Assembly (NCBI GenBank): GCA_046055745.1
Contig: JASFZG010000016.1
Coordinates: 2,423 to 66,422 of the forward strand
Direction: 5' to 3'
Length of the DNA: 64,000 bases
From: Flavobacteriaceae bacterium
GTDB taxonomy: Bacteria > Bacteroidota > Bacteroidia > Flavobacteriales > Flavobacteriaceae
Part shown: one piece after another, positions 2,774-54,643 of the stretch
Position numbering within the stretch: position 1 is the stretch's first letter
Layout of the letters: each line of letters starts with the position of its first letter
Translations under genes and position numbers: made by a program
The notes under the pieces: model-generated
Seen by the model: only the letters and a program-made list of their open reading frames with translations
Told to the model about the DNA's origin: nothing
Database searches by the model: none

Positions 2774-3715
2774 ATGGCAAGTCAAGTTATTGGGAAAAAA
2801 CCACGTATTCCACAAACCTATGCAATACGTAAAATTAGAAATACGGACGAAGATAAGGAATTTTGCGACCGTATTGATAAAAGGATTTATGAGTGGGAAA
2901 CTAAGTTTAAAAAACACCAAGAACAAAAAGCAATAGAACACGCAGAAAACAAAAAATTGTCAGATGAATTTATTATAAAAAAAATACCTTCTATAATTTT
3001 AACACCAAAAAAAATATATGAAAATTTTAGATTAGCTTATGAAATTTTAAATAAAAAACAGTTTGAAGAAATAAACCCGTATTCAAATATAGACGAACCT
3101 CACGTTTACGTTTTTACTTTGATTTACTATTTTTTAAAAGATGAAAGGTTCTTTAAAAGCCCATTGCTTCGTAAAGATTTATCAGAACCAAGTTTTGATA
3201 AAGGAACGTTAACTATTGGAGGTTACGGATGCGGAAAAACATCAACTTGGAATGCACTACTATATTATTTTTCTAAACTAACAAAATATGTTAAAGAAAA
3301 AAGACCTGAAAATCAACAGGAATTAACTAATAAATTTACAGTTAATAAATGTGTTTCTTCGGAAATTGTGAGTATGTACGATTTAGCACTTAGTAAAATA
3401 GAAACTATTGAATTAATGCGACCTTTACTTAGTTACAAATCGCTTTATATTGATGATATTATGCGAGAAAAAGACGCTAATAATTTTGGAAAAAACAACA
3501 TATTTCTAGGTGTTTTGACTAATAGGGCGGATAGAAACTCGCCAACGCATTTAACGATGAATCCGATTGAAAAAAAAGTAAATGGAAAAAATGAATTTGA
3601 AGATACAGAAGAATCTTTATTATCTTTTAAAAACAGATATGATGGTAGAATACACGACAGAATATTCGGGAATTACAACATAATAGAGCTAAAATCAAAA
3701 TCATTTAGAAGATAA
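2774..3715 (+). CDS. DnaC/IstB-like helicase-loader ATPase
   Basis: Walker A GGYGCGKT, Walker B LYIDD, THLTMN, RYDGRIHDRI, terminal KSFRR. True start may be an in-frame GTG about 50 nt upstream. Confidence 0.8.
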   Translation: MASQVIGKKPRIPQTYAIRKIRNTDEDKEFCDRIDKRIYEWETKFKKHQEQKAIEHAENKKLSDEFIIKKIPSIILTPKKIYENFRLAYEILNKKQFEEINPYSNIDEPHVYVFTLIYYFLKDERFFKSPLLRKDLSEPSFDKGTLTIGGYGCGKTSTWNALLYYFSKLTKYVKEKRPENQQELTNKFTVNKCVSSEIVSMYDLALSKIETIELMRPLLSYKSLYIDDIMREKDANNFGKNNIFLGVLTNRADRNSPTHLTMNPIEKKVNGKNEFEDTEESLLSFKNRYDGRIHDRIFGNYNIIELKSKSFRR

Positions 3716-13545: not shown

Positions 13546-16500
13546 ATGCCCGTAATCAAAAATATATTTCTAAAGTCTATCATGGATAAAGAGTCAGATC
13601 CTTCGTACATTAAAAACGGAAACACACGCCATAATGAGAATGTTCGTTTTGGCACAAATGGCGGTAATGATGGCGTAGGAGTGAATATAAGAGGAACACT
13701 TCAAGTTGCAGATTTAACCGACGGCAATTCTGACTTTAAATGTATTGGGGCAAAATATAATGAGAGCGACAATACTATTTATTATTTATTAGCTACTACA
13801 GACGGTGTTGTTAGTAAAGTTGCTGAATATAGACTTGATGATAATGACGGAAGCGTAATACTTCACGACACTACAAGTATTTTAAAGTTAAATAAAGGAG
13901 GGTATATTACCGGTATTAATGAAATTGATGGCTTATTGTTTTTTAGCGAATGGGGAAACAACCCACGAAGAATAAATATCGAAAGAGCAAAAGGCTACGG
14001 ATTAAATGGATATACCGAAAAGGATATTCAGGTTGCCGTAATTCCGCCACATAAACCACTAACAACTACATTAATTTATGCCGACCCATTATTAGACGAA
14101 AAAAATAACTTAGAAGAAAAAATGTTGTCTTTTTCGTACAGATGGAGATATTTAGATGGAGAATACAGCATATTAGCACCGTTTACGCCATTCCAATTTG
14201 AGCCTTTAGATTTTGAATATGACTACGCAGAGCAGTCTAATATTTCAATGGTAAATAAAATAAAATCCGTTGTTCTAAAATTTGACATAGGAAACAAAAG
14301 AGTAACCGAAATACAATTAGTTTTTAAAGAAAGTGGAAGTAATGACGAATGGATTATTGATGATTTTAATAAAGAAAAATTAGGTTGGAATGATGGACTT
14401 CCAAAAGAATATACTTTTGATGACAGTAAAGTCCATAGAGCATTAAGCAGTCACGTAATAAGAAACTACTCAAATGCAGTTCCTTTAACAAATAAAGCTC
14501 AAACTATTATCAATAATAGAATACTTTACGCACATTATAAAGAGAACTATAATCTTGTAGATGAAGCAGGAGTTGAAATAGAAATTGATTATGCGTTAGA
14601 ATTAATTTCAGTTCCCAATTATACAGTTTCAGAAGAAAGCGAGATAATACCAACATTAATACCAAAACAAACAGCTAAATCTAATAGAGATTATGAAGTT
14701 GGAGTTGTTTACTTAGACGACCCTTGTCGATCAACAACAGTACTAAAATCTAAAACTAATACGATATTTGTAGAAAGCAAGTTAAATTCACACGAAAATT
14801 ATTTTAACGTCATTTTATCGCATAACCCTCCGAAATTTGCTAAATATTTCAGGTTTTTCATAAAGCAAACAAAAAAAGGTTACGACCAATTATTACCTAC
14901 ATTCTTTTATGAAGATGGGGTATATCGTTGGATTAAACTAGAAGGTGCTGATAGAGACAAAATTAAAGAAGGTGATTATTTAATTGTAAAATCAGACACA
15001 AGAGGCTTTAAACAAAAACTTGTTAAAACTAAAGTTTTAGAGATAACTCAGCAAGAAAAAAACTTTCTACAACCAATTTCAGTTAATGATTCAATAAAAG
15101 AAATCGCAGGTTTATATTTTAAAATAAAGCCTGATGGATTTCATATTGATAGAAATGATTATAATATTTTCAATCAACTTATTTTTTCAAAATCAAATAC
15201 AAATAATGGAGCAGGAACAGTATTATGCCCTAATAGTACTGTTGGTGTAAAGCATTTTTATGGAGATGGCTTAGATGATTTGTTCTCTAGCGGAACATTT
15301 ACGGGAGCTACTGACGACAAAAGAAGATTCTCAATAACAATAGACTCAGTAGGAACGCCTGATAAGTTTTCTTGGAACAATGGCGTTGGAGCTAGTGGCA
15401 CTAATGAAGATATAATAGCAGGAGTTCCATTTTTATTAAGCGATGGCGTATCTATAACTTTCACGGCAGATACAGGACACACTATTGGAGACGAATGGAA
15501 TATAAACGCAAGAGCAGGTATATCCAATGATTCATTTAAAGCTTGGGCATTATTCAGAGTAACTGATATTAATGTTTATGACGCAGATAAAATATTTATA
15601 GGAGATATAATTCGTTTAGAATATGACGAGTTTAACGATGAAAACCATTTTTTTGAAATATTACATACATCAAACGGAAATTATGATAATATAGAAGAGT
15701 GGTTTTATAAAGAAAATATATTTAACGAGATTCAGGCACAAGCACCCGAAATAGGTCTTTCTTGGATTTGGTTTGCAAGAGGTAGTATTATTCAGGGTGG
15801 TTTTTTTGGTTCTGAATTTAGCCAAGTTGGCACTAATGGCTCTACACAAACCACCATGACAATGATAATTAAGTCGCAAGGAACTCAAAATAACCAAACA
15901 GCAAAGAGCGTGTTTATAGAGGCAACAAGTGAAGTTTTAAGTCAAGATGGGCAAAATATAATTGTTTTAGAAACAGAACCTAAAAACCAACCTCCCGAAA
16001 TATATCACGAAATAGGAAAAACATACGATATTGTAAATGGACTTCATATTTCAGATAATCCAAATATTTCATCAGACCAAGACCAAACAGCAAATAACCC
16101 TTTAAAAGTCAAATTAGATTGGTTTAATGCTTGGTGCTATGGAAACGCAGTAGAAAGCTATAAAATTAAAGATGAATTTAATAGAAAAGGCTTAGATGTT
16201 GGAATAAGAGCCTTGACAACGCAAACAGAAAAATACAAGGAAGTAATTAGAAAAGCAGACATTACTTGGAGTGATGTATATGAAGAAGAAAATAGTTTTA
16301 ATGGGCTAGGAACATTTAATTTATCTTTAATTAATTTTATTAAGCTCGATCAAGAAGACGGAACAATACAATTACTCCATAATTCAAACGGTAATTTGAT
16401 GGTTTTTCAAGAAGATGCAATCGGATTAATGCCCTATAATAAGAATGTTATTTACGATACCAAAGGAGGAAATTTTGTTGGAGTTTCTACAAATGTCCTC

Positions 16501-20544: not shown

Positions 20545-23500
20545 ATGGACAAAGAATTATTAGAATTACTTAACAAAGCGAAAACAGCAGGAGCTTCCAA
20601 AGAGCAGTTAATACAAATTCGTGATAACTACCTCTCAAAAAAAAAAGGCGTTACCGAAGAAAATACTCCTTCTCCATCGGAAAATTCAGATTTGGATTCA
20701 TCAGAACCGAAACAGATTGGTATTTCGGAATCTCAAAAAGTTCAAAATAGTGGTATTCCTACCGTAGAAAATTTAGAATCCTTAACCAAAAAAACAGAAC
20801 TTGAAAAAAATCTTCAAAGAAGAAATGACGTTACAAATGTTTCAGACTTAGAAACAAGATTTAAAACACCACCCGTATTAGATAAAGATATTAATTCAGA
20901 TAAAAATGAGTTTGATATTAGTATATTTAGCGAAGTTGAAGATAATGCAAATAAAGAGATTACAGATAGAGACAATCGTATTTCATCAAATCTTCAATCT
21001 TTTAGGGATGAAACAAAACTAACTAAAGAAGATGAAATAACATTAAAAGAGCGTTTTGATTCAGAAAAAACAATTAGCAAAACGGAAAATATTATAGATA
21101 ATACTTTAACCTTTTTTAAAAAAGCTATAAATCCATTTAGTACCCCTGTAATAACTATTCCTTTTGAGGATGAAATAAATGAAATAAAAAGCATTGCTTT
21201 AGAAAAAGAAGAAAAATTAACAAATGAACAAGTTTTAAAAAGAGCGGAAGAGTTATTTATAGAAAAAGAAAAAGACAATATATTTAATGACAAAGCAAAC
21301 ACCTTTTTATCAGAAATTGACTCTAAAAGTAAAGGAGAGGTTAATAATTTATTAAACACAACCGCAAAAGGATTAAGTGACGAAAATAAAAAACTAACTA
21401 TTTCAAATATAGCGTTAAAAGAAGATTTAACTTCTGGCTTAGAAGAAATTAAAAATAAAGCTGAATTTTTTAAAAATAACCCTCAATTAGTAACAAAAGA
21501 AGACGTCTTAGCCTTTAATTCTTTTAAAGAAGATTTAATACAAAAAGCAGAAATACGAAAACGTAATGACGAGAAGATAATATCAAACACAAAAGATTTA
21601 CAATCTGTAGAAAAAGAACACGACTTCTTTAAAAGAACTTATGACGGTGTTTTTAGGGAAAATTTGGCTATATCCGCATCTGATTTAATAATAGGAGGTA
21701 TTGATTTTGTTAATTTTATAAGTAAAGTTGAAACATTCGGCGGTATTCCTATTGGTTTTGATAAAGACAAAGACCCATTATTTAATACCTCACAAATAAG
21801 AGAAGAACAAAAATCATCAAGAGAATCAATAAGAAAACCTGTTGAAAGTGTTGAAAGTGTTGATGGATTTTTAAATTATTCATCAGATTTAATAGCAAAT
21901 CAATTACCTATAACATTAGCAACAGCTACAGGATATGGAGGGTTAGCAGCTATAGGAGCATCATCTACTGGTCAAAAACATGCTGAAATGACTGATGATA
22001 TAAAGTCAGGAAAACAGGATTATAATGCTTGGCAAATGATGTTAGTTCCTGTTGCACACGGATCAGCAGAAGCCGTATTTGAATTACCAACACTATCTAT
22101 TTTAAAAAAAGGGAAAAGAGTTCTTGGCGCAGCTCTAAAAGAATCTCCTACATTATTCCGAAAGACTGCTTCTGATATGGTTAAAGATTTTGGTGGTGAC
22201 TTTTTAAAAGAACATTCATCAGAACAAGCTACTAATCTTGTACAAAACGGACTAAATATATATGCGTTAGGAAAAGAAGGTAACATAACTGATAATGCCT
22301 TAGATGTATTTAAAGACACATCTGTAATGACATTGATAATGCAGGGAGCTCCACATATAATGGCTAAAGCTTTAAAGCCTTTTCAATCAAAAGATAATTT
22401 AAGAATTTTAGAAGAAAATGCTTTTAAAATGAAAGAATTATATAAGGATATAAATAATACAAATATTACTGATATAGAAAAAGCACTAATAAATAAAGAA
22501 ATTGAAAAACTAACAAAAAATAGTTCAGATATAATGAGAGGCGTTATAACAGATGTATCTGAAATGGATGAAAAAACAAGACTTGAAATATTAGATATAA
22601 ATGAAAAAGCAGGTAAATTAAGGATTCAAGCAAACGAAATAAAAAACAACGGGAAATCTAAAAATAAAGAATATTTGTTAGAAATAATATCTAACGAACA
22701 TCAACTACTTCAAGAAAAAAGAGAAAATATATTATTAAATTATGCAAATAAAAACGAAATTTCTTTTAATAAACTATCGCAAGAAGAAAAACTTTCATAC
22801 ATTGATAAAGCAGGGGAAATATTATCTAATGAACAGATAAATAAAGGAAACGAAAACTTTACGATTACAGAAGAGCAAACACAAAAAAAAGCGGAAGAAT
22901 TATTTAAAGAAGACTCAGTAAAAAACAAAGATACAGATAAAGAAAAATCGGTTTCAGAATCTACTACTAAATTTGCGGAAGAAATTTCTGAGAACAAAGA
23001 TAACGTAGAAGATATTTCTGATATTTCAGCAGGAACATTAAAGGTTACTGTTGGAGACACAAGTATTAATTTAAAGAACGGAGAGGGAGACAATATTAAA
23101 ATTGAAAGTGTTAGCACTAAAGAAGGAAAAAGAGGTCAAGGAAGTGCTAAAAACGCATTAGCTAAAGTTTCAGAGGTAGCCGACAATCAAGGTAAAACTT
23201 TAGAATTAAATGTTGTTCCGTTAGATAATTCAACAAAAACACAAGGTCTTATTAAATTATACGAAAGTGAAGGTTTTGTAAAAGAAGAAGGTTTCGATAA
23301 TAAAGACGGAGGTAAAATGATTAGACTCCCCGAAACAACCCAAACATTTGAAGATATTGTTGCTAAAGAAAAAGAAAATATTAAAAAAACAGAATCAAAA
23401 CCCAATCAAGAAGTTAAAAAAGTAATTGAAAAAACAGCTAAAACACCTAAAGAAAGCAATGAGACTATTACAATAGAATCTTTACGAGAAAAAAACAAAT

Positions 23501-26500
23501 CAACATTACCAAAAATATTATCAAATACAGTATTCAGTAAAGACAAAAAAAATATTCCATATAATGAATTAGTAGGTAAAGACAACGAATTAGAAAACCC
23601 TGAAAACTTACCAACCGAAGAAGTATCTATAAGTGATTTAATCCCAACTCAAAGACATATTAAAGAAGCCAATATAAATGACGTTAAGGATTATGATGAT
23701 GCACCAGTTGTAATAAGAAGGAAAGGAGAATTATATATTTCTGACGGACACCATAGGGTTGCAAGTTCTATTTTAAAAGGAGATTCTAAAATAGAAGTTA
23801 AAATATTGGATTTAAACAAAGAAACCAAATCAGAATCTAAAACTAAAGAAAAACAAGTTGTTCCAAAAGTCAAGGAACAAAAGACAATTATTAAGAAAAA
23901 ACCTACCGTAAAAGAAGTTAAACGAAAAACAGTTTTTAAATCAGGTAAAAAATCATTTACTGTAAAATTGGCGGATGGTAAATTGGTAATCTCTCCATTG
24001 TACGGTAAGAAAAAACCATACAATAGTCAAATTAGAGACATTACTAAACAATACGTTGAAGCTACTGATTTTGACAAAGGAGAAAAAGCTAATTTTGAAG
24101 GAACAGGGAATCTAAACAAATCACAACAACACGAATTTATAGCAGATAACAGCAAAAACGCACAAGAAGTAGCTACAGCTTTAAACGAAGCAAAAAACGA
24201 CATAAAAGATACAGTTGAAGCACAAGAATTAACTTTAGAAGATGCTATATCACAAGCGTTAAACGGAAAGTTTATAGATAAAAATAACCATAACCATTTT
24301 ACAGATTTGTCAAAATTTTGGAAAGGCGGAAAAAACAAAACGTTAATCACTTTAGACGATGCAAGAAGGGTAGCACAAGAAATTTTAGGCACAGAGGTAG
24401 ATATTAACGATGTAATAGAATTTGCTCAAAAATATAATTCTGTAAAAGACTATAACACAATAACCAAAGAAATAGACACCGATAATTTAGATAATTTAAA
24501 ACAAAAATTCCAAGAACTAACAGGATTAAGACCAACAGACCAAAATATTAAAGATGTTACAGGGAAATCGAAAACCAAACAGGAACAGAAAACAGAAACA
24601 AAAGAAGATTCAGTTAAAGATGATGAAGTTCCTTTCCAAACTGAAAGCGAGCAGACAGGAATAAAAGGGAATATTTTACAAAAACTAATAGACACTCTTA
24701 AAAAAACAGGTCTTGCAAAAACAGTAAAAGTTTTATCCGACAATGCTATTGCAGAAAACTTAAAGCGTCTTGGGATTGAATTTAAAGAAACTCCATTAGG
24801 ATTTGTTGACGGAAATACTATTTATATTAATTCTGATAAGGTTAAAGCAGATACTCCTATTCACGAATTTAGTCACTTATGGATGAATTATGCAAAAGAA
24901 AATCACGCAGAAACATTCTCAGTAGGATTAAACTTAATTGAAGGCACTAATTATCATAAAGCGGTACAAAATAATCCTGCATATAAAGATTTAACAAAGC
25001 AACAGCAACTCGAAGAAGCGTTAGCACAAGCAATCGGAGAAAGCGGTGTTGAACTTCAAAAAGAAAGTGCTAAAAAATACGATCAATTTAAAGCTTGGTT
25101 TAAAAAACTTTTCACAGAAATAGCAAAAGGTCTTGGTATTCGTAATATGACAGGCTTACAATTAGCAAATCTATCGCTTAAAGACTTTACAAGAAGAGCA
25201 GCAGCCGATTTATTAGCAGGAAAAAAAATAGGAGAATTCGACACCAAACAGCCTAAAAACAAAATAGATGTTGGTGAAAATAGTGGTATTGAATTTTTAA
25301 TGGAGCAACAAACCACCATTAATGACATTAAAATCAAATTAAAAGAAACTATTTCAAACAAAAAAGCAGAAGAGAAAGATGTTAAAAAAGCATTTTTAGA
25401 TTATTTAAAGGAGACGATTAAGCGAAAAGGATTAAACGAAATCCAATCAGGACAATTAACCTCGTTACTTAATCTTTACGACAAAACAGTTACAGAAGCA
25501 AAGCTAAATATTGCTATTAAAAAAATTGATACTATTTCCAATAAACTTGACCAAAAAGAATATAAAAATCATATTGGAAAACTTAAAAGCAGAGCTATTG
25601 CCGTAGAAGTTGCAAGGAATAAAAAGAAACGTATTGCTGAAAAAAGAACAGCCGTAAAAGATTATCTAAAACAATCAATTAAAGATAAAACATTCTTTTC
25701 TACAGCAACATTTAACGACATTGTAGCTATTAACAATGCGATAAACAACAATAATATCGACCAAGCCATAGAAATGATAGACAAGGTAGCTGTTCGTCTT
25801 GAAAAGAGATATAATCTTGTTGTTGCAAGAAATGAAACTAAAAAAAGAACCGCCGAAGAAAAACTTGAGAAACTGAAACAAAAAATTCAGGACGAGAAAA
25901 ATAAATACAAGGACTTAAAAGAAAACTTCGCTAGTAAGAAAAAAGAAGTTGCAGAAGTAAAAAAAGCAGTACTTGATTATATAAATGACAGTCTTGATAA
26001 TAACTTACTTGGAAAAATAAAAAAGAGTGATCTTAAAGGAATTACTAAACAAACGAAAGTCAGTAAACTTGAAGACTTACAAAATTCCCTTGACGAAATT
26101 GATAATATTGTTTTAAAACTTCAAAATTTAAAGCTAAACGATAAAATCACTTCGCTATTAGACAAGGGTAAAGCAGGAAAACAAGCAAATAAAGATGTAG
26201 CTAAGAGTATTGTTCAAGAAAGAGCAACCGTATTAAACGACATTAAAAAATTAATTAAAACGGCTAAGTCAAATAAAAAAATAGAGACTGAACAGATTTT
26301 AAACAAAAAACTCGATGAAATACGTGATGAAATAACAGAATTAACCACAACTCCTTCTCAGGTTGATGGAGAGTCAGGTGTTCTTATTCCTTTAGAAACT
26401 ATCCCTGATAAAAATACGGAAAGAGTTAATACTTTATTAATAGCCGAAAATATCATACTTTCAAAATTAGCGAGTGATCCTGCGATAGAAAACCAATTCT

Positions 26501-29247
26501 TAGAAGGAGTCCGAACTAATTTAGAATTTATAGTTAAAAAAGGTAAGCACGAACTTATTGCTGAAAAAGAAGTTCAAACTTCTAAGTTAGAAGCGGAGCA
26601 AGCAGAGATTATTCCTGAGATTGACGGTAATAATTCAAGAAATACCAATGCGTTTAACGACACAATGGATAATATTAAAAGAAAGTTTAATAAAAGGAGC
26701 ATTTTAAAAGGAGGGCTTGTGTCGAAAAAACTATCTCAATACTTTCTAAATCCATTATACAGTAACTTAACAACTCTTAGAAAAAAATTATCCAAAAACC
26801 CTTCTAATGGCTCGGCTATTAAAGGCTTTCAAAGACTGATTGTTGATATTGATTTTGCGGAAATTAATATGAATCAAATCAATGAAAATTGGGGTAATGA
26901 GATAAACGATATTAAAGATAAAATATTTAAAGGTTTTATTCCTTCAAGAAAAGCAAGGCTTAAAAATGGTAAAGTTAAGTTTATAAAATCAAACATAGGT
27001 AGTAGAACAAAGGCTGATTGGGCATTGAGCGAATCTATTGAAGTAACGATAAAAACTCCTGATGGAGATGTAAAAGAATCATTTAGCGCATCTGTATTAT
27101 TAGATGTTCTTTTGAAGTCTAAAAATCCAAATAACTTAGAAGGTCTTGATAAATCAGGATTCACAAAAGAAACTATCGACGAAATAGAATCAAAGCTATC
27201 CGACAACGTAAAGCAGTATGGACAAGAAGTTATGGATTTTTACAAAAAGAAATATAAAGAGATAAATGACGTTTATAGAAAAATGTATTTTAGAAATTTA
27301 CCTTTTGATGAATTTTATTCCGGCAAACTCAATATTAGTGGCGTTGAAGATGCAACAGATCAAAATTTATTTGAATCAGTACACTCTTTCGGCACAACAG
27401 CAGGAGGAAGTTTAAAAACAAAAACGCAACACAAAAAAGCAATTACTCCCTCAAATGTTGACTCTAATTTAGGTAATTACATTACTCAAATGTCAAAATT
27501 TATAGCTTATGCAGAGGTTCATAGAAGACTAAATAAAACCTTAAATAATCAGGATTTTCAAAAAGCTGTTTATATGAACAATAAAGGCGTTGGAGGGGAT
27601 TTATTAGACCAATTAAAAAAGTTTAAAGAAAGACATATAGAGAAAACAAAAGTTCACGAATCTTCAAGGGTGATTAACTTATTAAATAGAAATTATATTG
27701 CATTTATACTTGGAGGAAAGCTAAAACAAATCCCTATCCAAATGGTTTCGGCTATTAACGGACAATTTTCTTTACCTAAAGGATTAACACCGAAAGAATG
27801 GGCTATCGCACACGCCAATATCCCAAAAGACGCATTGTATTTATTTGAAAACTCTAAATTAATAAAACAAAGACTTAATACAAAACAAGCCATAAAAGCA
27901 TTTAGTTCTATTGATGATTCATATTCATATACAAATAATATGACTCAAAATGACAGAGTAAATTTAATGTTTAGATTATTAGGAACAGCAGGAGATAAGG
28001 CAAGAGCAATAGGAATGACTCCTATTAAAGTAGGGGATATGTTAGGAGTTTCGGGGCAAATTCCTGTTTTTGGAGCAGCTAAAATAAAAATAAAACAACA
28101 AAACCCTACTTGGTCAGATTCTAAAGTAGCAAAAGAAGCAATGCTTGTTTTTGAAGATTCAGTAAACAGAACACAGCAAGGACAAACTAAAGGTGTAAAA
28201 AGTTACGTTCAAAACCAACCACTATTAAAATTATTAATCAACTTTAAAACAACACCAATTCTTAATATAAATGAGTCTTGGATTGCTTTAAATGATATGA
28301 AAAAAGGAAAGAACGCAAGTAAATCAAAAGCACAAAACATCGCTACAATAATTAACTTTGGTATTTTACAAAACTCAATATACACCCTAGTAAATACAGC
28401 ATCGGTAGCATCTAAAGCAGCTATTTTAGCAGGAACTTGGAATCTATTAAAAGCATTATTTGATGATGAAGACGATGATGAACAATTAAAAGGATATTCA
28501 AATGAGGAAAAAGATTTACTTTACTCATTACTCGGAGGTCAATTTATTGATGGAATGTATATTGGATCACTAAAAACTTGGATTGACTTGCAGTTGCTAA
28601 AAAAAGATTTCTCTTTTGGCACATCAATTCCAATCGTTCTAAAAGAAGAGATGGATAAGTTCGATAAAAACCAAAGAACATATTTAACAACAGAAAATCC
28701 AACAACTAAAAGAAAAGCAGGTATAAAAATGATTTCATCTTTATCAGCTATTCTTGCAGGTATGCCACCGAAAGCTGTCTTAGAATATTTACAGTACCAT
28801 ACTATTGTTTCGGGAGAAAACATATTTAATGAAGAAGAAAAAGCGAAATTAAGAGAAGGGCATTCATTTTCAGCCGTAAACTTTGCTAGAGAAGAAAGAA
28901 CAGGTATAAAACTAACGGATTTATTAGAAATTGATGCAAATGGAGAAAGTCTTGATTTTACCGATAAAGAAATTAAAGAAGCTGAAAAATCACAGGAACT
29001 TATAAAACTTAAAAATGAAGCAAAAGAAAAGATAAAATCAGGAGATAAACTTTACCAAAAAGAAGAACTGGATGCTTTAGGTATAACTGAAAAATGGCAA
29101 TTTAACAATGCTAACTTTAATAATATTAAATTTGATCGTGAAAGTGCAATAAGAAAAATAAAAAGAGGAACAAAACTCTATAACGATAAAGAATTAAAAA
29201 GACTAAAAATAACTCCTAAATGGCAAAACGATAACAAACCAAAATAA
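20545..29247 (+). CDS. giant polyvalent virion/ejection protein with GNAT, ParB/Srx-like and zincin metallopeptidase domains
   Basis: KRGQGSAK...KLYESEGF; LIPTQ...DGHHRV; TPIHEFSHLW...EEALAQAIG. Confidence 0.75.
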   Translation: MDKELLELLNKAKTAGASKEQLIQIRDNYLSKKKGVTEENTPSPSENSDLDSSEPKQIGISESQKVQNSGIPTVENLESLTKKTELEKNLQRRNDVTNVSDLETRFKTPPVLDKDINSDKNEFDISIFSEVEDNANKEITDRDNRISSNLQSFRDETKLTKEDEITLKERFDSEKTISKTENIIDNTLTFFKKAINPFSTPVITIPFEDEINEIKSIALEKEEKLTNEQVLKRAEELFIEKEKDNIFNDKANTFLSEIDSKSKGEVNNLLNTTAKGLSDENKKLTISNIALKEDLTSGLEEIKNKAEFFKNNPQLVTKEDVLAFNSFKEDLIQKAEIRKRNDEKIISNTKDLQSVEKEHDFFKRTYDGVFRENLAISASDLIIGGIDFVNFISKVETFGGIPIGFDKDKDPLFNTSQIREEQKSSRESIRKPVESVESVDGFLNYSSDLIANQLPITLATATGYGGLAAIGASSTGQKHAEMTDDIKSGKQDYNAWQMMLVPVAHGSAEAVFELPTLSILKKGKRVLGAALKESPTLFRKTASDMVKDFGGDFLKEHSSEQATNLVQNGLNIYALGKEGNITDNALDVFKDTSVMTLIMQGAPHIMAKALKPFQSKDNLRILEENAFKMKELYKDINNTNITDIEKALINKEIEKLTKNSSDIMRGVITDVSEMDEKTRLEILDINEKAGKLRIQANEIKNNGKSKNKEYLLEIISNEHQLLQEKRENILLNYANKNEISFNKLSQEEKLSYIDKAGEILSNEQINKGNENFTITEEQTQKKAEELFKEDSVKNKDTDKEKSVSESTTKFAEEISENKDNVEDISDISAGTLKVTVGDTSINLKNGEGDNIKIESVSTKEGKRGQGSAKNALAKVSEVADNQGKTLELNVVPLDNSTKTQGLIKLYESEGFVKEEGFDNKDGGKMIRLPETTQTFEDIVAKEKENIKKTESKPNQEVKKVIEKTAKTPKESNETITIESLREKNKSTLPKILSNTVFSKDKKNIPYNELVGKDNELENPENLPTEEVSISDLIPTQRHIKEANINDVKDYDDAPVVIRRKGELYISDGHHRVASSILKGDSKIEVKILDLNKETKSESKTKEKQVVPKVKEQKTIIKKKPTVKEVKRKTVFKSGKKSFTVKLADGKLVISPLYGKKKPYNSQIRDITKQYVEATDFDKGEKANFEGTGNLNKSQQHEFIADNSKNAQEVATALNEAKNDIKDTVEAQELTLEDAISQALNGKFIDKNNHNHFTDLSKFWKGGKNKTLITLDDARRVAQEILGTEVDINDVIEFAQKYNSVKDYNTITKEIDTDNLDNLKQKFQELTGLRPTDQNIKDVTGKSKTKQEQKTETKEDSVKDDEVPFQTESEQTGIKGNILQKLIDTLKKTGLAKTVKVLSDNAIAENLKRLGIEFKETPLGFVDGNTIYINSDKVKADTPIHEFSHLWMNYAKENHAETFSVGLNLIEGTNYHKAVQNNPAYKDLTKQQQLEEALAQAIGESGVELQKESAKKYDQFKAWFKKLFTEIAKGLGIRNMTGLQLANLSLKDFTRRAAADLLAGKKIGEFDTKQPKNKIDVGENSGIEFLMEQQTTINDIKIKLKETISNKKAEEKDVKKAFLDYLKETIKRKGLNEIQSGQLTSLLNLYDKTVTEAKLNIAIKKIDTISNKLDQKEYKNHIGKLKSRAIAVEVARNKKKRIAEKRTAVKDYLKQSIKDKTFFSTATFNDIVAINNAINNNNIDQAIEMIDKVAVRLEKRYNLVVARNETKKRTAEEKLEKLKQKIQDEKNKYKDLKENFASKKKEVAEVKKAVLDYINDSLDNNLLGKIKKSDLKGITKQTKVSKLEDLQNSLDEIDNIVLKLQNLKLNDKITSLLDKGKAGKQANKDVAKSIVQERATVLNDIKKLIKTAKSNKKIETEQILNKKLDEIRDEITELTTTPSQVDGESGVLIPLETIPDKNTERVNTLLIAENIILSKLASDPAIENQFLEGVRTNLEFIVKKGKHELIAEKEVQTSKLEAEQAEIIPEIDGNNSRNTNAFNDTMDNIKRKFNKRSILKGGLVSKKLSQYFLNPLYSNLTTLRKKLSKNPSNGSAIKGFQRLIVDIDFAEINMNQINENWGNEINDIKDKIFKGFIPSRKARLKNGKVKFIKSNIGSRTKADWALSESIEVTIKTPDGDVKESFSASVLLDVLLKSKNPNNLEGLDKSGFTKETIDEIESKLSDNVKQYGQEVMDFYKKKYKEINDVYRKMYFRNLPFDEFYSGKLNISGVEDATDQNLFESVHSFGTTAGGSLKTKTQHKKAITPSNVDSNLGNYITQMSKFIAYAEVHRRLNKTLNNQDFQKAVYMNNKGVGGDLLDQLKKFKERHIEKTKVHESSRVINLLNRNYIAFILGGKLKQIPIQMVSAINGQFSLPKGLTPKEWAIAHANIPKDALYLFENSKLIKQRLNTKQAIKAFSSIDDSYSYTNNMTQNDRVNLMFRLLGTAGDKARAIGMTPIKVGDMLGVSGQIPVFGAAKIKIKQQNPTWSDSKVAKEAMLVFEDSVNRTQQGQTKGVKSYVQNQPLLKLLINFKTTPILNINESWIALNDMKKGKNASKSKAQNIATIINFGILQNSIYTLVNTASVASKAAILAGTWNLLKALFDDEDDDEQLKGYSNEEKDLLYSLLGGQFIDGMYIGSLKTWIDLQLLKKDFSFGTSIPIVLKEEMDKFDKNQRTYLTTENPTTKRKAGIKMISSLSAILAGMPPKAVLEYLQYHTIVSGENIFNEEEKAKLREGHSFSAVNFAREERTGIKLTDLLEIDANGESLDFTDKEIKEAEKSQELIKLKNEAKEKIKSGDKLYQKEELDALGITEKWQFNNANFNNIKFDRESAIRKIKRGTKLYNDKELKRLKITPKWQNDNKPK

Positions 29248-46665: not shown

Positions 46666-47229
46666 ATGTGTAAAAAAAAACATAACAGGAATTGTTTAGA
46701 CTGCCACAAGAAAACAACTTTCAAAGAGTTAAATAAGTACGGAGGTATTTGTGAAAAATGTGCCGATGCTATAGAGTATCATAAGCCTACACATAAAACT
46801 CCTGAATACAAAAAAAAGGAAAGGTGTATTGGAATTGTTGATGAAACAGCTAGAAAAACTTATAACTTTAATAATATGAAAAACAGCATTGATACATTAA
46901 TACCATTAATTGAGGATTGGGCTAAAGAAAAAGGAATACTTGAAAAAGCCACGCCTTTGGATCAGTTATCTAAAACAGAAGAAGAAGTTTTAGAACTAAG
47001 AGAATCGTTATTTGCACAGAAAAACGATATGCGGTTCTTTTACAACTCTAAAGGAAACCTAAAGAACACACAGGAAGAAATTGAAGATGCTATTGGAGAC
47101 GTTTTAGTTACATTAATCATACAGGCTAAAATTCAGAACTTAAACATTGTAGATTGTCTTAAAGGAGCTTATGATATTATTTCTAAACGTGAAGGAGAAA
47201 TGGTTGATGGAAAGTTTGTAAAAGAATAG
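46666..47229 (+). CDS. MazG-like nucleotide pyrophosphohydrolase
   Basis: WAKEKGI...K..EE..EL...DAIGD..VTL...AYD.I..R.G.MVDGKFVKE; N-terminal CxxC/CxxC extension (alternative start 46876). Confidence 0.85.
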   Translation: MCKKKHNRNCLDCHKKTTFKELNKYGGICEKCADAIEYHKPTHKTPEYKKKERCIGIVDETARKTYNFNNMKNSIDTLIPLIEDWAKEKGILEKATPLDQLSKTEEEVLELRESLFAQKNDMRFFYNSKGNLKNTQEEIEDAIGDVLVTLIIQAKIQNLNIVDCLKGAYDIISKREGEMVDGKFVKE

Positions 47230-50053: not shown

Positions 50054-50500
50054 ATGAAAAACACAATTATTGTTGATATAGATGGAACTATATCAAAAGT
50101 AGGAAATAGACTAAAGTTCCTTTTGGAATCTCCTAAAGATTGGGATTCTTTTTATAATGCTTGTTTTGAAGACCAACCGATACGAGAAATTATAGACTTT
50201 TTAGCTCTATTAGAAGACCATTACATTATTGTTTTTTGCACCGGAAGACGAGAAAGTGTTAGAGAGATAACTACAAAATGGATTTATAAACATCTTGGCA
50301 TTTCAACATACAAGAATAATTTACTAATGCGTCCTAACAACGATTATAGACACGACACAATCGTTAAGCCTGAACAATTAGAAAAAGCAGGAATTGAACT
50401 TAAAAACATAGCTTTTGTTTTAGAAGACAGAAACTCTATGGTCAAAAAATGGAGAGATTTAGGATTAACTTGTCTGCAAGTTGCTGACGGAGATTTTTAA
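50054..50500 (+). CDS. HAD phosphatase, T4 PNK 3'-phosphatase-like
   Basis: DIDGT, CTGR, LLMRP.ND.R.D..VK, EDR...V..WR..GL.CLQV..GDF. Confidence 0.85.
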   Translation: MKNTIIVDIDGTISKVGNRLKFLLESPKDWDSFYNACFEDQPIREIIDFLALLEDHYIIVFCTGRRESVREITTKWIYKHLGISTYKNNLLMRPNNDYRHDTIVKPEQLEKAGIELKNIAFVLEDRNSMVKKWRDLGLTCLQVADGDF

Positions 50501-50509
50501 AAATAAAAT

Positions 50510-50986
50510 ATGAAGTTAGAAGTAAAAGTAAAAAACGTAGTTGCTAATCTTGAATTAGAAGCAGAAGGAAAACCAACCGTTGAGGTAATAGCAATTATAA
50601 CCGAAATGATTGATAAGCTTGTTATAGCTAGTAATGGAGTTAGTGAAAAAACTATAGATGTTGAAGAATCTTGGAATCCTAATTGGGAGGAAATCAAAAA
50701 ATCACTTGAACAAGAGGTTTTTGTGAAAATACCTACATCAAGAATTGAATATATAGATAAAGACGGCAACAAAACATATTCTAAGGAATTACCTTCAAAA
50801 ACTTTAGAAGATAGAGTATATGATGATTGTGTGAAAATGATTAATAAAATAGGTAGAAGGTTTTTAAGTTACAGAGAACTTAAAGGAGAATTTAAAATAC
50901 CCTTAGTAGATGAAGACGGAAAAATATTCGCAGAAACTTCTTTGGATCAAATAAGATTTTGGATTAACAGAGAAAACAGTAAATAA
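50510..50986 (+). CDS. hypothetical protein
   Basis: ORF in operon. Confidence 0.55.
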   Translation: MKLEVKVKNVVANLELEAEGKPTVEVIAIITEMIDKLVIASNGVSEKTIDVEESWNPNWEEIKKSLEQEVFVKIPTSRIEYIDKDGNKTYSKELPSKTLEDRVYDDCVKMINKIGRRFLSYRELKGEFKIPLVDEDGKIFAETSLDQIRFWINRENSK

Positions 50987-51176
50987 TTTTATTGTATATT
51001 TGACTTTTACACTCCATAAATAAGACCGATATGAAAAAAAATGACAAAAGTAAAAGTAACAAAGAAAAAAGGCAAACCAGTTAAGGTTAGAAAAACTACT
51101 ATTAAGAAAAAGAAATAGTAAAAAATTTAGATTGAGATTTTATAATTTAAGTTCGTTTATTATTTAGTTGATAAGG

Positions 51177-51212
51177 AAAAACCAACATTACTCAATCGTG
51201 TTGGTTTTTTTT
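51177..51212. terminator. bidirectional terminator ending the tRNA operon and the convergent + strand operon
   Basis: AAAAACCAACA/TGTTGGTTTTTTTT. Confidence 0.75.
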
Positions 51213-51238
51213 GTGCCATTTTTACAACCTAATAATTG

Positions 51239-51321
51239 CAGAAAGAATCGTACTCGAAACGAAATGTTTAACCATCACACGACTTAGCAGGTCGGTCTTG
51301 CACCTCACAAGTTTACTTTCT
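51239..51321 (-). tRNA. tRNA-Ser(GCT)
   Basis: Anticodon arm CCGAC-CTGCTAA-GTCGT, long variable arm, G73; some stem mismatches. Confidence 0.75.
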
Positions 51322-51326
51322 TTTTG

Positions 51327-51398
51327 AGGCTAGTAAGGCAATCGAACCCATATAGTAATGATTTGCAATCACACACTTTACCAATCAGACAACTAGCC
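51327..51398 (-). tRNA. tRNA-Cys(GCA), divergent
   Basis: Acceptor GGCTAGT/ACTAGCC, U73, loop TTGCAAA; mismatched T and anticodon stems. Confidence 0.6.
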
Positions 51399-51403
51399 AT
51401 TAG

Positions 51404-51484
51404 AGGAAGATAGAGTAATCGAAACCCCAAGTGTTACCTTGACCAAGGGTTCAAGCCTTGTTTGCCACCTTAGCATTACCTTCC
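51404..51484 (-). tRNA. tRNA-Ser(TGA)
   Basis: CAAGG-CTTGAAC-CCTTG, long variable arm; atypical U73. Confidence 0.7.
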
Positions 51485-51488
51485 TTTG

Positions 51489-51561
51489 TGGAAATAGTTG
51501 GACTCGAACCAACGGCCATCAGATTTTCAGTCTGACACTCTACCAACTGAGTTATATTTCC
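51489..51561 (-). tRNA. tRNA-Phe(GAA)
   Basis: Canonical cloverleaf; TCAGA-CTGAAAA-TCTGA. Confidence 0.95.
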
Positions 51562-51566
51562 ATTTG

Positions 51567-51637
51567 CACGAGTGGAGAGATTTGAACTCTCACGATACAG
51601 TTTTGGAGACCGACCGACACAACCTACGCTCACAAGT
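51567..51637 (-). tRNA. tRNA-Trp(CCA), divergent
   Basis: Loop CTCCAAA, T-arm GAGAG-TTCAAAT-CTCTC, G73; two acceptor mismatches. Confidence 0.65.
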
Positions 51638-51644
51638 ATTTTAG

Positions 51645-51727
51645 TGGGAGTAATTGGAATCGAACCAATACCTCTCGGACTACAGGTTTACAATCTGCTC
51701 TAACAAACCAATAGTTAGCTTACTCCC
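51645..51727 (-). tRNA. tRNA-Tyr(GTA)
   Basis: Acceptor GGGAGTA/TACTCCC, loop TTGTAAA, variable arm, T-arm ATTGG-TTCGATT-CCAAT. Confidence 0.85.
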
Positions 51728-51729
51728 AT

Positions 51730-51859
51730 AAAAAAAGCCCTACTAAATATAGTAAGGCTCAAAATCTTTATATTGTTTTTTTATATAGCCCTACTACCCC
51801 GTACTAAACGAGCAAAGTAACCAACTATATAAAAAAGTATTAATCATAAGGCAAATATA
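51730..51859 (-). promoter_or_regulatory. promoter plus leader-peptide transcription attenuator of the tRNA operon
   Basis: TATATTTG 51859-51852; mutually exclusive 1:2, 2:3 and 3:4 helices; the 3:4 helix is followed by a U-tract. Confidence 0.8.
51794..51847 (-). CDS. attenuator leader peptide MINTFLYSWLLCSFSTG
   Basis: ATG 4 nt after the promoter motif; TAG TAG stop; codons match all downstream tRNAs. Confidence 0.75.
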   Translation of the reverse strand: MINTFLYSWLLCSFSTG

Positions 51860-52077
51860 CATATTATTTTTATAATTCCTATTATCTCTGTTTATTAAAG
51901 AAAACCCCAATAGCTTATGAAACTAACATCAACCTCACATCGAAAACAGTATCACTATCGGGGAATTTCAATTCACTAACTCTGTTTATTTATCTGTTTT
52001 ATTCTTTTTATCTGCTTTTTAACTTTCCTTTGTTTATAGGTTATCCGGCTGAGGTACACACCACGTAAACAAACTTT

Positions 52078-52317
52078 TTATTTGTTAATTATCGATAGAA
52101 CACATTTCTCGAAATCTTCAACTGTTTCGGAGGTATCGAAAATAGTATCGCTGATACTAATATCAAAATGCTCTTCAATTTCAATTATTAATACAACCAA
52201 ATCTAAACTATTAAGACCTAAGTCCTCTAAGTTAGACGAAGACTTTACTTCTGATACACTTACTCCTAAATGTTTTGCGGTAATACTGATAATTACCTCT
52301 AGTACTGATTTGCCCAT
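52078..52317 (-). CDS. acyl carrier protein homologue
   Basis: HLGV...DLGLNSLDLV.LIIEIEEHFDISISD...TVED. Confidence 0.85.
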   Translation of the reverse strand: MGKSVLEVIISITAKHLGVSVSEVKSSSNLEDLGLNSLDLVVLIIEIEEHFDISISDTIFDTSETVEDFEKCVLSIINK

Positions 52318-52378
52318 TATAATTTGTGGTCTATTAAGTTATTAATTGAATAATTATATATATGCTTTAAAGTACTCT

Positions 52379-52680
52379 GTGAACTACCCACCCACGGCAG
52401 AGCCGATGGGTTGGGCTTCGGAGGTCACAGACTCACCTAATGGCAACGCCTTACTCCGTTTTTGTTTTTTATCCGACTGTATTCCACAACCAGATATTAT
52501 ATTTAATCCTTGTTTAAGTATGTTTTTACTTGCATTCAAATCTCTATCGTGAGCCTCATTGCAACTATCACAAGTCCAGATACAATTCGTCAATATATTT
52601 TAAGTCAAGGTTAATTACTACATTTGTCGCTTACATCCCACCAACGCTAAAGCGATTAGTGGGTTTTACGCTCTATCTCT
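52379..52680 (-). mobile_element. internally deleted, non-autonomous IS200/IS605 element with a tnpB 3' remnant
   Basis: TTTAT before the left end, subterminal hairpins at both ends, right end TTCAC; remnant WTCDSC..HDRDLNASKNI. Confidence 0.85.
52384..52593 (-). pseudogene. tnpB: tnpB C-terminal fragment
   Basis: Only half a Zn ribbon and the RuvC-III motif DRDLNA remain. Confidence 0.8.
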
Positions 52681-52835
52681 ATAAAAGACCGGCCGAATAC
52701 CACAACCTCAAACCAAGCATACAGGAGAATAATTAACCATTAAAAAAAACTCCCGTATATAGCTCAGTTCATTAAAATAACAACAGTCCAAATGTAACAT
52801 AAAAAATTAATACATAAAAATATATTATTACTATC

Positions 52836-53306
52836 CTATTTCCCTTTACAATTATTACTATTCAACATATTACCGTCATAGTCAAACTCCTTATTTTTAA
52901 CCTTACCTTTTATAATATAATGCTCATTCAGAACATACCACTTAGAAAAACCATCAATAGGCTCAATCAATCCCAACTTTATAAACTTAGACCTAGCATT
53001 ATAAAAAACAGTCTTATTACTACGAACAGCCTTAAACCTACTATAAACAAACTCACAACAAAAACCATCAATATAATCATTGCTAAATTTAATATCATTC
53101 AATAAAGCCAAAAATAAACTCTGCTCAGACCTATTCAACTCAAATATCTTAGACAATCCAACAGTATTCATAACAATACTACCCCTACCATAACTAACTA
53201 AATAATTCTTCTTATTATTCTCAGGATTTGGCATAGTAAATGAAAGCACACGCTTTTGCATATACTCCAATAACCTATCTCTAACTTTTAAAGAATACCA
53301 ACTCAT
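52836..53306 (-). CDS. putative winged-helix DNA-binding (RepL-like) protein
   Basis: LNRSEQSLF..L...KTVFYNARSKFIKLGLI......WYVLN. Confidence 0.5.
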   Translation of the reverse strand: MSWYSLKVRDRLLEYMQKRVLSFTMPNPENNKKNYLVSYGRGSIVMNTVGLSKIFELNRSEQSLFLALLNDIKFSNDYIDGFCCEFVYSRFKAVRSNKTVFYNARSKFIKLGLIEPIDGFSKWYVLNEHYIIKGKVKNKEFDYDGNMLNSNNCKGK

Positions 53307-53424
53307 AAAAAAAGACCCCTAAATGAAAAAAGCAACGCATCTACTCGCTACTTAATCCAAAAAGAGGTCTAATTATAATTTCTTCTATTGCTTTTAAGTA
53401 GATGACAACAACTTTACAAAGATA
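53307..53424 (-). promoter_or_regulatory. promoter plus pseudoknot/terminator leader
   Basis: TATCTTTG; CATCTACT pairs with loop AGTAGATG; AGACCTCT/AGGGGTCT stem, T-tract, then ATG. Confidence 0.65.
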
Positions 53425-53430
53425 CACAAA

Positions 53431-53502
53431 TCCATTCAAAAAATGGTTACTAAATCCTATACCATTTTTTGAATGAAACCCATTCTATTCAAAAAATGGT
53501 TA
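53431..53502. repeat. three copies (two direct, one inverted) of ATTCAAAAAATGGT
   Basis: Read directly upstream of the 53424 promoter. Confidence 0.7.
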
Positions 53503-54643
53503 CACTACAGTAGTACTTTTTAAACTACACAAATCATACATTAACACAACAACACAAAGACTTAACAAGATTATGTTAAAAAAGTTAGTATAAAGAACAA
53601 CATACTATAACATTACTCAAATTCAATAATATTACTCAAAGCCAAATAAGACGTTCTAAGAGCTTTTAATGCACAATAACTTATACTCATACCATATTAA
53701 CGCTAAACGTACAGAAAGTATAGTGAAAATTTTTTTTAGAGCATAATTTACATACACTTGTATTCTATGGCTTAGTAGTGGGGAATATAGAAATATTTCA
53801 GAATGGTCAAGTGAAATTTTGAAACCCACACCCCTTGTTATTTTCTGATGTTGACCAAAACTTTTTAGGTTTTACTATTTTTTGTGTGTGTTGTTTGGAT
53901 TACTACTATTACTTATTATATCCTTGTTATGCTTGAAGTAAACTATACTATTCCCTTGCCTTGTGGTATCAACTCGATTCTAATTGAGTTGATACCACTT
54001 ATTAACCAACTATTGAAGCTTATTACATTAATTACCGTACAATTATATTTATTTTGTACACTAATTAAATTCTAAGCATACTTTAAAACCTTGTCAAGTC
54101 CCTTGTGTGCTACTATTATAAACATTTATACACTTGTATATTTTGTGGTTAAGAACTCTTTAAAAGTTATTTAAAACTGTTTTTATTACGTATTATTCTT
54201 TTGTTGTTTTTTTCTGTGTGTTATTATTTCTTTGAGTAAAGGTATTATTTTGAGTAACGTCTATATTTTATTTGTTTGAGAATATTTATTTTATTTTATA
54301 TTTTGGTTATCGGCGTTTTTTTATTGAGTCCTTTAATTTGTTGGAGTTGTGAAGGGTTTACAGGTTTAAAAGTTTATTGCTTTATTGTTTTGCTGGAATC
54401 TATTTTTATGCTGTTTATCGGGTTTTTTATTTATGATTGGCTTATTAGCGTCTTTTTGCTCTTTATTAACTACTAATTAATAAAATACTTTATATCTTTT
54501 ATTGTGTTGTGCTGTTAGTCCTTTATTGGCAGGGGTTAACGTGGTTTTAAGATTATATATTTTTATTGCTATTTATATTTTTATTTCAATATGTTTTATT
54601 ATATTGCAGTATCAATAGTTTATTAATCTAAAATAACAACAAA

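Follow-up and report, generated by a model that had tools for sequence, protein, structure and literature searches.

Why phages carry tRNA genes has been an open question for about 50 years (PMC10264068). The main rival answers are codon compensation and the replacement of destroyed tRNAs. The window, by which we mean the whole 64,000-nucleotide stretch analysed, belongs to a 67.9-kb contig (C16) that is the largest in a 2.6-Mb Bacteroidota assembly. Tailed-phage genes were observed on this contig, including those for a terminase large subunit, a portal, virion proteins, an endolysin and replication proteins; it has no terminal repeat, and its first ORF is integrase-like by eye. A 2900-codon ORF lies in the virion region at 20545-29247 (+). 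We conclude that the tRNA operon is very probably preceded by a ribosome-coupled transcription attenuator that lets it sense the supply of its own tRNAs, and that, in phages of aquatic Bacteroidota, each tRNA block is likely switched on only when those same tRNAs run short.

Table 1. Features of the tRNA operon and its leader (positions are those of the window)
Feature	Position	Strand	Remarks
Promoter box TATATTTG	51852..51859	-	Bacteroidota sigma-A type TAnnTTTG; 4 nt before ATG 51847; predicted TSS is the A of AUG
Leader uORF MINTFLYSWLLCSFSTG	51794..51847	-	17 codons, then TAG (51796-51794); likely leaderless
Sensor codons 5-14 (TTT TTA TAT AGT TGG TTA CTT TGC TCG TTT)	51806..51835	-	each of the six tRNAs has one or more cognate codons here
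Segment 1	51823..51836	-	pairs with segment 2 (1:2 helix) when ribosome absent
Segment 2, antiterminator strand	51777..51796	-	includes TAGTAGGGCT (51796-51787) over the stop codons; 2:3 helix -11.5 kcal/mol
Segment 3, 5' arm of terminator	51750..51759	-	sequence and folding
Segment 4 and U tract, intrinsic terminator	51730..51745	-	3:4 helix -14.2 kcal/mol; second TAGTAGGGCT at 51745-51736
tRNA-Tyr(GUA)	51644..51727	-	default ARAGORN; Rfam tRNA-family match
tRNA-Trp(CCA), short atypical D-arm	51566..51633	-	relaxed ARAGORN; Rfam tRNA match below gathering
tRNA-Phe(GAA)	51488..51561	-	default ARAGORN; Rfam tRNA-family match
tRNA-Ser(UGA), divergent	51403..51484	-	relaxed ARAGORN threshold only
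tRNA-Cys(GCA)	51326..51398	-	relaxed ARAGORN; Rfam tRNA-family match
tRNA-Ser(GCU), divergent	51238..51321	-	relaxed ARAGORN threshold only
Array-closing hairpin, A/U tracts on both sides	51177..51209	-	likely bidirectional terminator

An earlier sequence-only reading had described a promoter directly 5' of a short uORF, four alternative leader segments, an exact duplication of one 10-mer, and a 3:4 hairpin with a U tract next to the first tRNA gene, and each of these elements was found where it had been placed. The U tract itself (51736-51730) stops 2 nt ahead of tRNA-Tyr. The same reading held that every downstream tRNA has a cognate codon in the uORF. All six tRNAs were matched within codons 5-14, with ARAGORN run at a relaxed threshold for the full set, as its default threshold calls Tyr and Phe only. 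Three Leu codons were also present in the leader, and the array has no Leu tRNA. The window promoter is without a clear -33 TTTG box.

Several neighbouring features were observed. Just 5' of the tRNA leader, on the same strand, is a phage gene for an acyl carrier protein (PHROG 5934; 52078-52317, -), with no obvious terminator in the interval between it and the leader promoter, and a transposase C-terminal fragment (PHROG 506; 52384-52593, -) is also upstream on that strand. On the other side, a TATATTTG box followed by a 25-codon, extremely Lys-rich ORF (MTKVKVTKKKGKPVKVRKTTIKKKK) at 50995-51118 (+) converges on the hairpin that ends the array. A polynucleotide kinase/phosphatase-like gene (50054-50500, +) and a MazG-like gene (46666-47229, +) are found near the cassette; in other phages, genes like these have been linked to RNA repair or to counter-defence.

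Chance accounted poorly for the arrangement in the window. The probability of finding all six codon classes in 16 random codons ranged from 0.0008 with phage codon usage to 0.004 with local base composition, and an exact copy of arm 4 occurred within the 88 nt upstream in 14 of 200,000 shuffles. The leader folded as 1:2 plus 3:4 with a z-score of -5.5. When the transcript was folded before arm 4 had been added, the minimum-energy structure was 1:2 with the ribosome absent, while a ribosome whose A site lay anywhere from codon 2 to codon 14 gave a 2:3 probability of 0.85-0.99, falling to 0 from codon 15 onward. This simulated switch point depends on the assumed footprint of 10 nt beyond the A site. 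Once the transcript is full-length, the terminator prevails at equilibrium whatever the position of the ribosome, and the switch must therefore be kinetic, that is, co-transcriptional.

The first homologues were obtained by BLAST of the tRNAs and came from two phages of different families, Cellulophaga phi10:1 and Tenacibaculum Gundel_1, both of which show the layout of the window with different sequences. The first listed of this pair of leaders (MLKKWSYSCFSYSFKNGEVIL) precedes Tyr, Trp, Phe, Ser and Cys tRNAs, and the second (MKTKLYSYSCFSSWFKNRAG) precedes a Tyr-like gene, Trp, Phe, Ser, a Cys-like gene and Ser. Narrow searches returned little: the 40 relatives of the assembly that were compared showed isolated tRNA similarity only and did not contain the cassette of the window; of the 7 loci matched by a tRNA-Trp pattern, 6 were unrelated GC-rich phage arrays that lack such a leader; a pattern for the Trp-Phe junction matched the two known phages only; and one BLAST query had no hits. 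An architecture pattern matched 34 of 401 Bacteroidota genomes (38 matches, 30 with loci), and among the 29 non-window loci checked in 400 Bacteroidota genomes one was real (L449, a Cys-Phe pair). The gut phages LoVEphage/BI-TP1 and crAss cr131_1 contain tRNAs and no such leader, and no host leaderless attenuator of the same geometry was found in the MAG (81% complete).

IMG/VR, metagenomes and GTDB were scanned with codon-blind patterns in which only the promoter, ATG, U tract and tRNA T-loop were fixed, with one scan run without the ATG requirement. Among the matches listed, 446 sequences reduced to 107 non-redundant leader candidates, 84 of which had at least 3 distinct anticodons before the first gap of more than 150 nt; the 23 candidates with fewer anticodons were excluded, and ARAGORN miscalls were retained. 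A uORF of 12-30 codons was present in 83 of the 84, the remaining one duplicating an array that was represented by another candidate. This gave at least 83 Bacteroidota leader/tRNA-array pairs, almost all on viral or metagenome contigs, with uORFs of 16-26 codons in the 83 arrays among the matches listed.

The position of the start codon was fixed as well. Among the matches listed from the ATG-free scan, ATG lay exactly 4 nt past the box in 19 of 59 promoter candidates, with the next-best offsets at 3 each, and for arrays with at least 3 tRNAs it lay at +4 in 17 of 26 and at +4 to +7 in 20 of 26; the genome-wide background of ATG offsets after the box was flat. A TTTG-like consensus at -35..-32, for which no selection had been made, was observed upstream of the listed leaders. 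The TAnnTTTG box occupies -12..-5 in F. psychrophilum (PMC9723704), so that +1, four bases on, makes the A of AUG the predicted TSS. The AUG is thus likely the first base of the transcript, which would be leaderless, although leaderless mRNAs make up just 5.5% in F. psychrophilum (PMC9723704) and this counts against such a start.

Codon content of the leaders followed tRNA content of the arrays closely. In the 83 pairs among the matches listed, 413 of 426 tRNAs had a cognate codon within codons 2-17 of their own leader, and 71 of 83 listed leaders covered all of their own tRNAs (the 12 others miss at least one called tRNA, some of these probably miscalls). Mean coverage in these listed pairs was 0.97, compared to 0.54 after permuting leaders among arrays (0 of 2000 permutations). 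The difference was retained when one listed leader was kept per cluster, at 75% identity (56 clusters; 0.96 vs 0.54, 0/2000), at 65% identity (21 clusters; 0.92 vs 0.53, 0/2000) and at 60%, where 6 clusters were left (0.90 vs 0.53, 3/2000). Coverage among the matches listed was 0.95 in frame 0 and 0.30 and 0.33 in the +1 and +2 frames, with off-frame stops in 31/83 and 46/83 leaders in the two other frames. The proportion of codons decoded by a leader's own array, again among the matches listed, was about 0.02 at codons 2-3, 0.6-0.9 at codons 7-14, 0.3 at codons 15-16 and at background from codon 17, and the family-wide match peaked at codons 5-14.

The match extended to isoacceptors. Among the matches listed, the corresponding codon class was present for 49 of 49 arrays with Leu-UAG, 34 of 34 with Leu-UAA, 30 of 30 with Ser-UGA/CGA and 31 of 31 with Ser-GCU, and arrays with Arg-ACG had CGN in codons 5-15 in 25 of 25 cases. 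The commonest Arg codon in the phage genes of the window is AGA (58/94), unlike these CGN sensors. Judged from sequence, the codon match works at the level of the isoacceptor and not of the amino acid. Gains and losses of single tRNAs were followed in the listed leaders too: a Glu codon was observed in 10 of 11 Pro/His-family leaders with tRNA-Glu and in 0 of 16 without it, and in the Ser/Tyr family (n=31) Phe, Cys, Trp and Leu codons follow the tRNAs apart from 2-4 exceptions for each, which include the Leu codons of the window. Fisher tests of such gain and loss overstate significance because relatives are not independent.

The pairing between segments 2 and 3 was examined in the same listed leaders. 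A compact terminator hairpin was present in 83 of 83 matches listed (median -12.8 kcal/mol), the U tract being part of the selection. Over-long arms made the antiterminator test noisy (24/83 beat all 60 shuffles), and compact arms were used instead. The best arm-3 partner started 43-62 nt from the AUG in 81 of 83 listed leaders, compared to 23% of shuffles. Pairing averaged -10.0 for a listed leader's own arm, -6.3 for foreign arms and -5.3 for shuffled windows, with the own arm ranking in the top tenth for only 48 of 83 leaders, since CCU/CCC cores are common to many arms. A 1:2 helix of at least 4 expected pairs was found in 82 of 83 listed leaders, with a median of 11.5 pairs and -15.1 kcal/mol, against 8.0 pairs and -10.2 kcal/mol when codon order was shuffled. 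Homologous leaders thus keep the uORF, as expected from the sequence-only reading, while the duplicated 10-mer of the window is kept as complementarity only: segments 2 and 3 remain complementary across the family with differing sequences.

Folding with and without a ribosome constraint, which the sequence-only reading had proposed as a check, was extended to the listed leaders. The antiterminator formed in 76-99% of the leaders among the matches listed with the A site at codons 4-14, in 42% at codon 15, in 11% at codon 16 and in 1% at codon 17. In silico, the switch point therefore coincides with the independently measured sensor-codon window, an agreement that rests on the assumed footprint.

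A held-out set of cultured phages was found by tRNA similarity alone, and the leaders were read afterwards. Of the 57 tRNAs in their own modules, the 8 held-out leaders covered 52, Met accounting for three of the five that were missed; of the 92 carried by sibling modules of the same genome they covered 17. Phages phi4:1 (24 annotated tRNA features) and phi38:1 contain three tRNA modules each, every one with its own uORF and terminator, and Maribacter phage Panino has at least two modules, each likewise with a uORF and a terminator. Leaders in phi38:1 beginning with MKTIMNIATDIRTKGVK, MKTNMTYNNFSWYSNCSFS and MNVTLLHQEPLEQLRLP precede, respectively, Lys Ile Gly Met Asp Thr Val Arg-UCU Ile; Tyr Ser Ser Asn Trp Phe Cys; and Pro Glu Gln His Leu Arg. 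A second leader in Gundel_1 (MKTNNLHIQQNNLPVFLEGFLYM) precedes Pro Gln Met Asn Leu. The sensing window of about 10 codons is likely why larger relatives split 15-24 tRNAs into 2-3 modules with separate leaders. Modules for A/G-starting codons tend toward a leadered uORF; these were missed by the pattern scans and seen in neighbouring DNA. The attenuator suggested by the sequence-only reading is supported by these comparisons, with uORF codons co-varying with tRNA content across at least 83 arrays and within single phage genomes, and sequence comparison confirmed a leader/tRNA-array pairing far more general than the first locus showed.

Some further features of these cultured phages were observed. 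The hypothetical genes Phi38:1_gp066 and gp070 share stop codons with leader uORFs (L478 623-730, 3264-3446), several phi38:1 tRNAs lack GenBank annotation, and Phi4:1_gp076 overlaps an unannotated tRNA-Ser(UGA) (L446 10118-10219). In Gundel_1 (L002 ~3110-3680), an HNH endonuclease gene with a promoter-like box lies between the second attenuator and its tRNAs, an insertion that may allow attenuator control to be bypassed.

We propose the following mechanism. Host RNA polymerase would start at the AUG, as the promoter spacing suggests. With all sensed tRNAs available, the ribosome would pass codon 15 and cover segment 2, and the 3:4 terminator would form; with the ribosome absent, 1:2 would form, which should also tend toward termination. 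Lack of any one sensed tRNA would stall the ribosome at codon 14 or earlier, allowing 2:3 to form and the six tRNAs to be transcribed. The tRNA output would close a negative-feedback loop, with OR logic across about 10 codons.

The sequence features of a ribosome-mediated attenuator were observed: a uORF with product-related codons, a terminator 5' of the first gene, a 1:2 helix and, in silico, a mutually exclusive antiterminator that is freed by a stalled ribosome and covered by a running one. Leader-peptide attenuation has been reported for amino-acid operons of F. psychrophilum (PMC9723704). As in classical attenuators (trp, his, phe, thr, ilv; pheST), regulatory codons lie over segment 1 and 2:3 competes with 3:4. 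Here, in contrast, the targets are tRNA genes, the elements are phage-borne, modular and mostly leaderless, and 3-10 different tRNAs are sampled by one or few codons each with isoacceptor resolution. A strict amino-acid biosynthesis attenuator was rejected given the mixed codons, the tRNA-gene targets and an Rfam Phe_leader score below gathering; Phe_leader was the only leader-peptide match over the whole element, at 24.7 bits compared to a threshold of 55.

More recent systems share parts of this design. Mycobacterial polycysteine attenuators (10.1101/834739; PMC13096801) also use a leaderless short ORF as sensor, but serve one amino acid and protein-coding targets on the chromosome; when VapC4 cleaves tRNA-Cys in M. 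tuberculosis, ribosomes stall on leaderless attenuator ORFs of this sort (PMC13096801). The Anabaena trn operon and TrcR (PMC8421152; PMC10272220) similarly involve an accessory tRNA array that is silent until translational stress induces it, yet with a protein repressor at promoter repeats and no codon specificity, whereas the control element here lies downstream of the promoter; PMC8421152 mentions neither attenuation nor a leader. The uORF attenuator of whiB7/wblC (10.1101/2023.06.02.543512) shares premature termination coupled to a uORF under translation stress, but controls a transcription factor with no matched tRNA set. Phage tRNAs also replace destroyed host tRNAs in the case of T5 tRNA-Tyr against retron-Eco7 PtuAB and tRNA-Lys against PrrC (PMC11555353), and of tRNA-Lys against PARIS (PMC11464382). 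In these rescues a strong promoter supplies the tRNA, and PMC11555353 makes no mention of attenuation, while for the arrays described here conditional supply is predicted. Searches of open-access PMC and bioRxiv full text turned up no attenuator that acts on tRNA genes, whether in a phage array or elsewhere. The mechanism is thus already known in kind, and its target, logic and setting are new.

Shortage of the sensed tRNAs could arise in several ways, and we lean modestly towards loss of functional host tRNAs during infection, by cleavage or degradation, as the natural trigger. A counter-defence purpose for the attenuated arrays appears slightly better than an even bet. Much the same can be said for modular surveillance of the host tRNA pool, in which a destroyed tRNA would cause a stall at its codon and only the module with the replacement would be induced. 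A cis-sensor tuned to the isoacceptors of its own array implies that shortage of those tRNAs is what selection acts on, and rescue from retron-Eco7 by a phage tRNA depends on expression level (PMC11555353). Nuclease attack, general tRNA decay and hypomodification are not separable as triggers from these data, and no particular nuclease is tied to these arrays.

The same attenuator could instead do a supply-and-demand job, responding to uncharged tRNA or heavy codon demand, brought about by amino-acid limitation, late protein synthesis or general decay of the host tRNA pool and not by a defence nuclease. We consider this possible, though on the unlikely side. Ribosome-coupled attenuators respond to slow decoding of any cause (PMC1183508), and the modules of large relatives together serve almost every amino acid, as expected of a general replacement set. 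However, amino-acid starvation would not be cured by extra tRNA, and the leaders match isoacceptors rather than amino acids. Sensors often carry one codon per tRNA and low regulatory-codon density reduces attenuator sensitivity (PMC1183508), so that single-codon sensors, needing a long stall, would be better suited to severe loss than to mild limitation. Together these three points favour host tRNA loss. The tRNA-Tyr and tRNA-Cys of the window have U32 where those of the assembly itself, the putative host, have C32, with the Trp loop identical; nuclease-evading phage tRNAs differ at anticodon-loop positions (PMC10264068), and the difference at position 32 would weakly support evasion over supply and demand.

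Leaders might also sense the loss of a tRNA modification class, as modules group roughly by the first codon base, a reading we regard as improbable. The position-37 modifications m1G37, ms2i6A37 and t6A37 parallel the grouping into CNN, UNN and A/G-starting codons. Module make-up recurs across unrelated phages, and 5 of the 6 window tRNAs read UNN codons, both in line with such a class. Against this, the grouping does not hold for Glu, Asn, Ser-GCU and Leu-UAA, some modules are mixed (L069, L070, L141), newly made phage tRNAs would themselves depend on those host enzymes, and pairing of a pyrimidine-rich segment 1 with a purine-rich segment 2 may cause the grouping instead. The recurring types observed in unrelated phages (L446, L478, L479, L348, L099, L107) consist of CNN readers plus Glu; UNN readers plus Ser-GCU and Asn; type II tRNAs (Leu, Ser, Tyr); and, as a further type, A/G-starting codons with leadered uORFs.

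A functional uORF peptide, or T-box-like codon-anticodon pairing without ribosome sensing, is very improbable. Peptide motifs are common to some leader families, yet listed arrays with identical tRNA sets have shuffled codon order (positional identity 0.35-0.66 among the matches listed) with codon presence kept, which argues against a functional peptide. A T-box riboswitch, defined by a Stem I specifier loop and a T-box antiterminator bulge, was rejected: Rfam matched no T-box family over 50900-53600 with E values up to 5 allowed, and the codon match depends on the AUG frame. That a leaky terminator only damps a constitutive promoter, with the uORF incidental, is scarcely credible either; the terminator does dominate equilibrium folding, in line with this reading, but codon-tRNA co-variation, the fixed AUG position and the conserved antiterminator position would be left unexplained. 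Frame dependence, codon shuffling and co-variation thus led us to reject the T-box, functional-peptide and incidental-ORF readings in turn.

If the ribosome-coupled attenuator is real, its output would be its own sensed ligand, under multi-input OR logic in a virus, and the phage tRNA question becomes a reporter assay. Cultured systems are at hand (Cellulophaga phi38:1, phi4:1 and phi10:1; Tenacibaculum Gundel_1; Maribacter Panino), and the restricted, modular arrays make the co-variation test possible. The leaders could be used as isoacceptor-specific reporters in screens for unknown tRNA-targeting defences in Bacteroidota, and, if host-tRNA-pool surveillance is their function, leader sequences would directly record which tRNAs matter in phage-host conflict.

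Related arrangements were also observed in host contexts. A cluster with atypical tRNA-Tyr, Asp and Glu and a degenerate tRNA-like sequence (G000 C211, ~15000-15510, -) showed no leader ORF; its neighbours are presumably a TPR-like gene and a gene resembling SPFH/slipin proteins, and the cluster may serve in stress or RNA repair. On a 2-Mb bacterial contig among host genes (L227 2000-2300), a leaderless Cys/Phe-rich attenuator beginning with MTIRKNSFCFCCFT precedes an atypical tRNA-Cys and tRNA-Phe just 5' of a gene resembling, by eye, cystathionine lyase/synthase, and is possibly a domesticated module.
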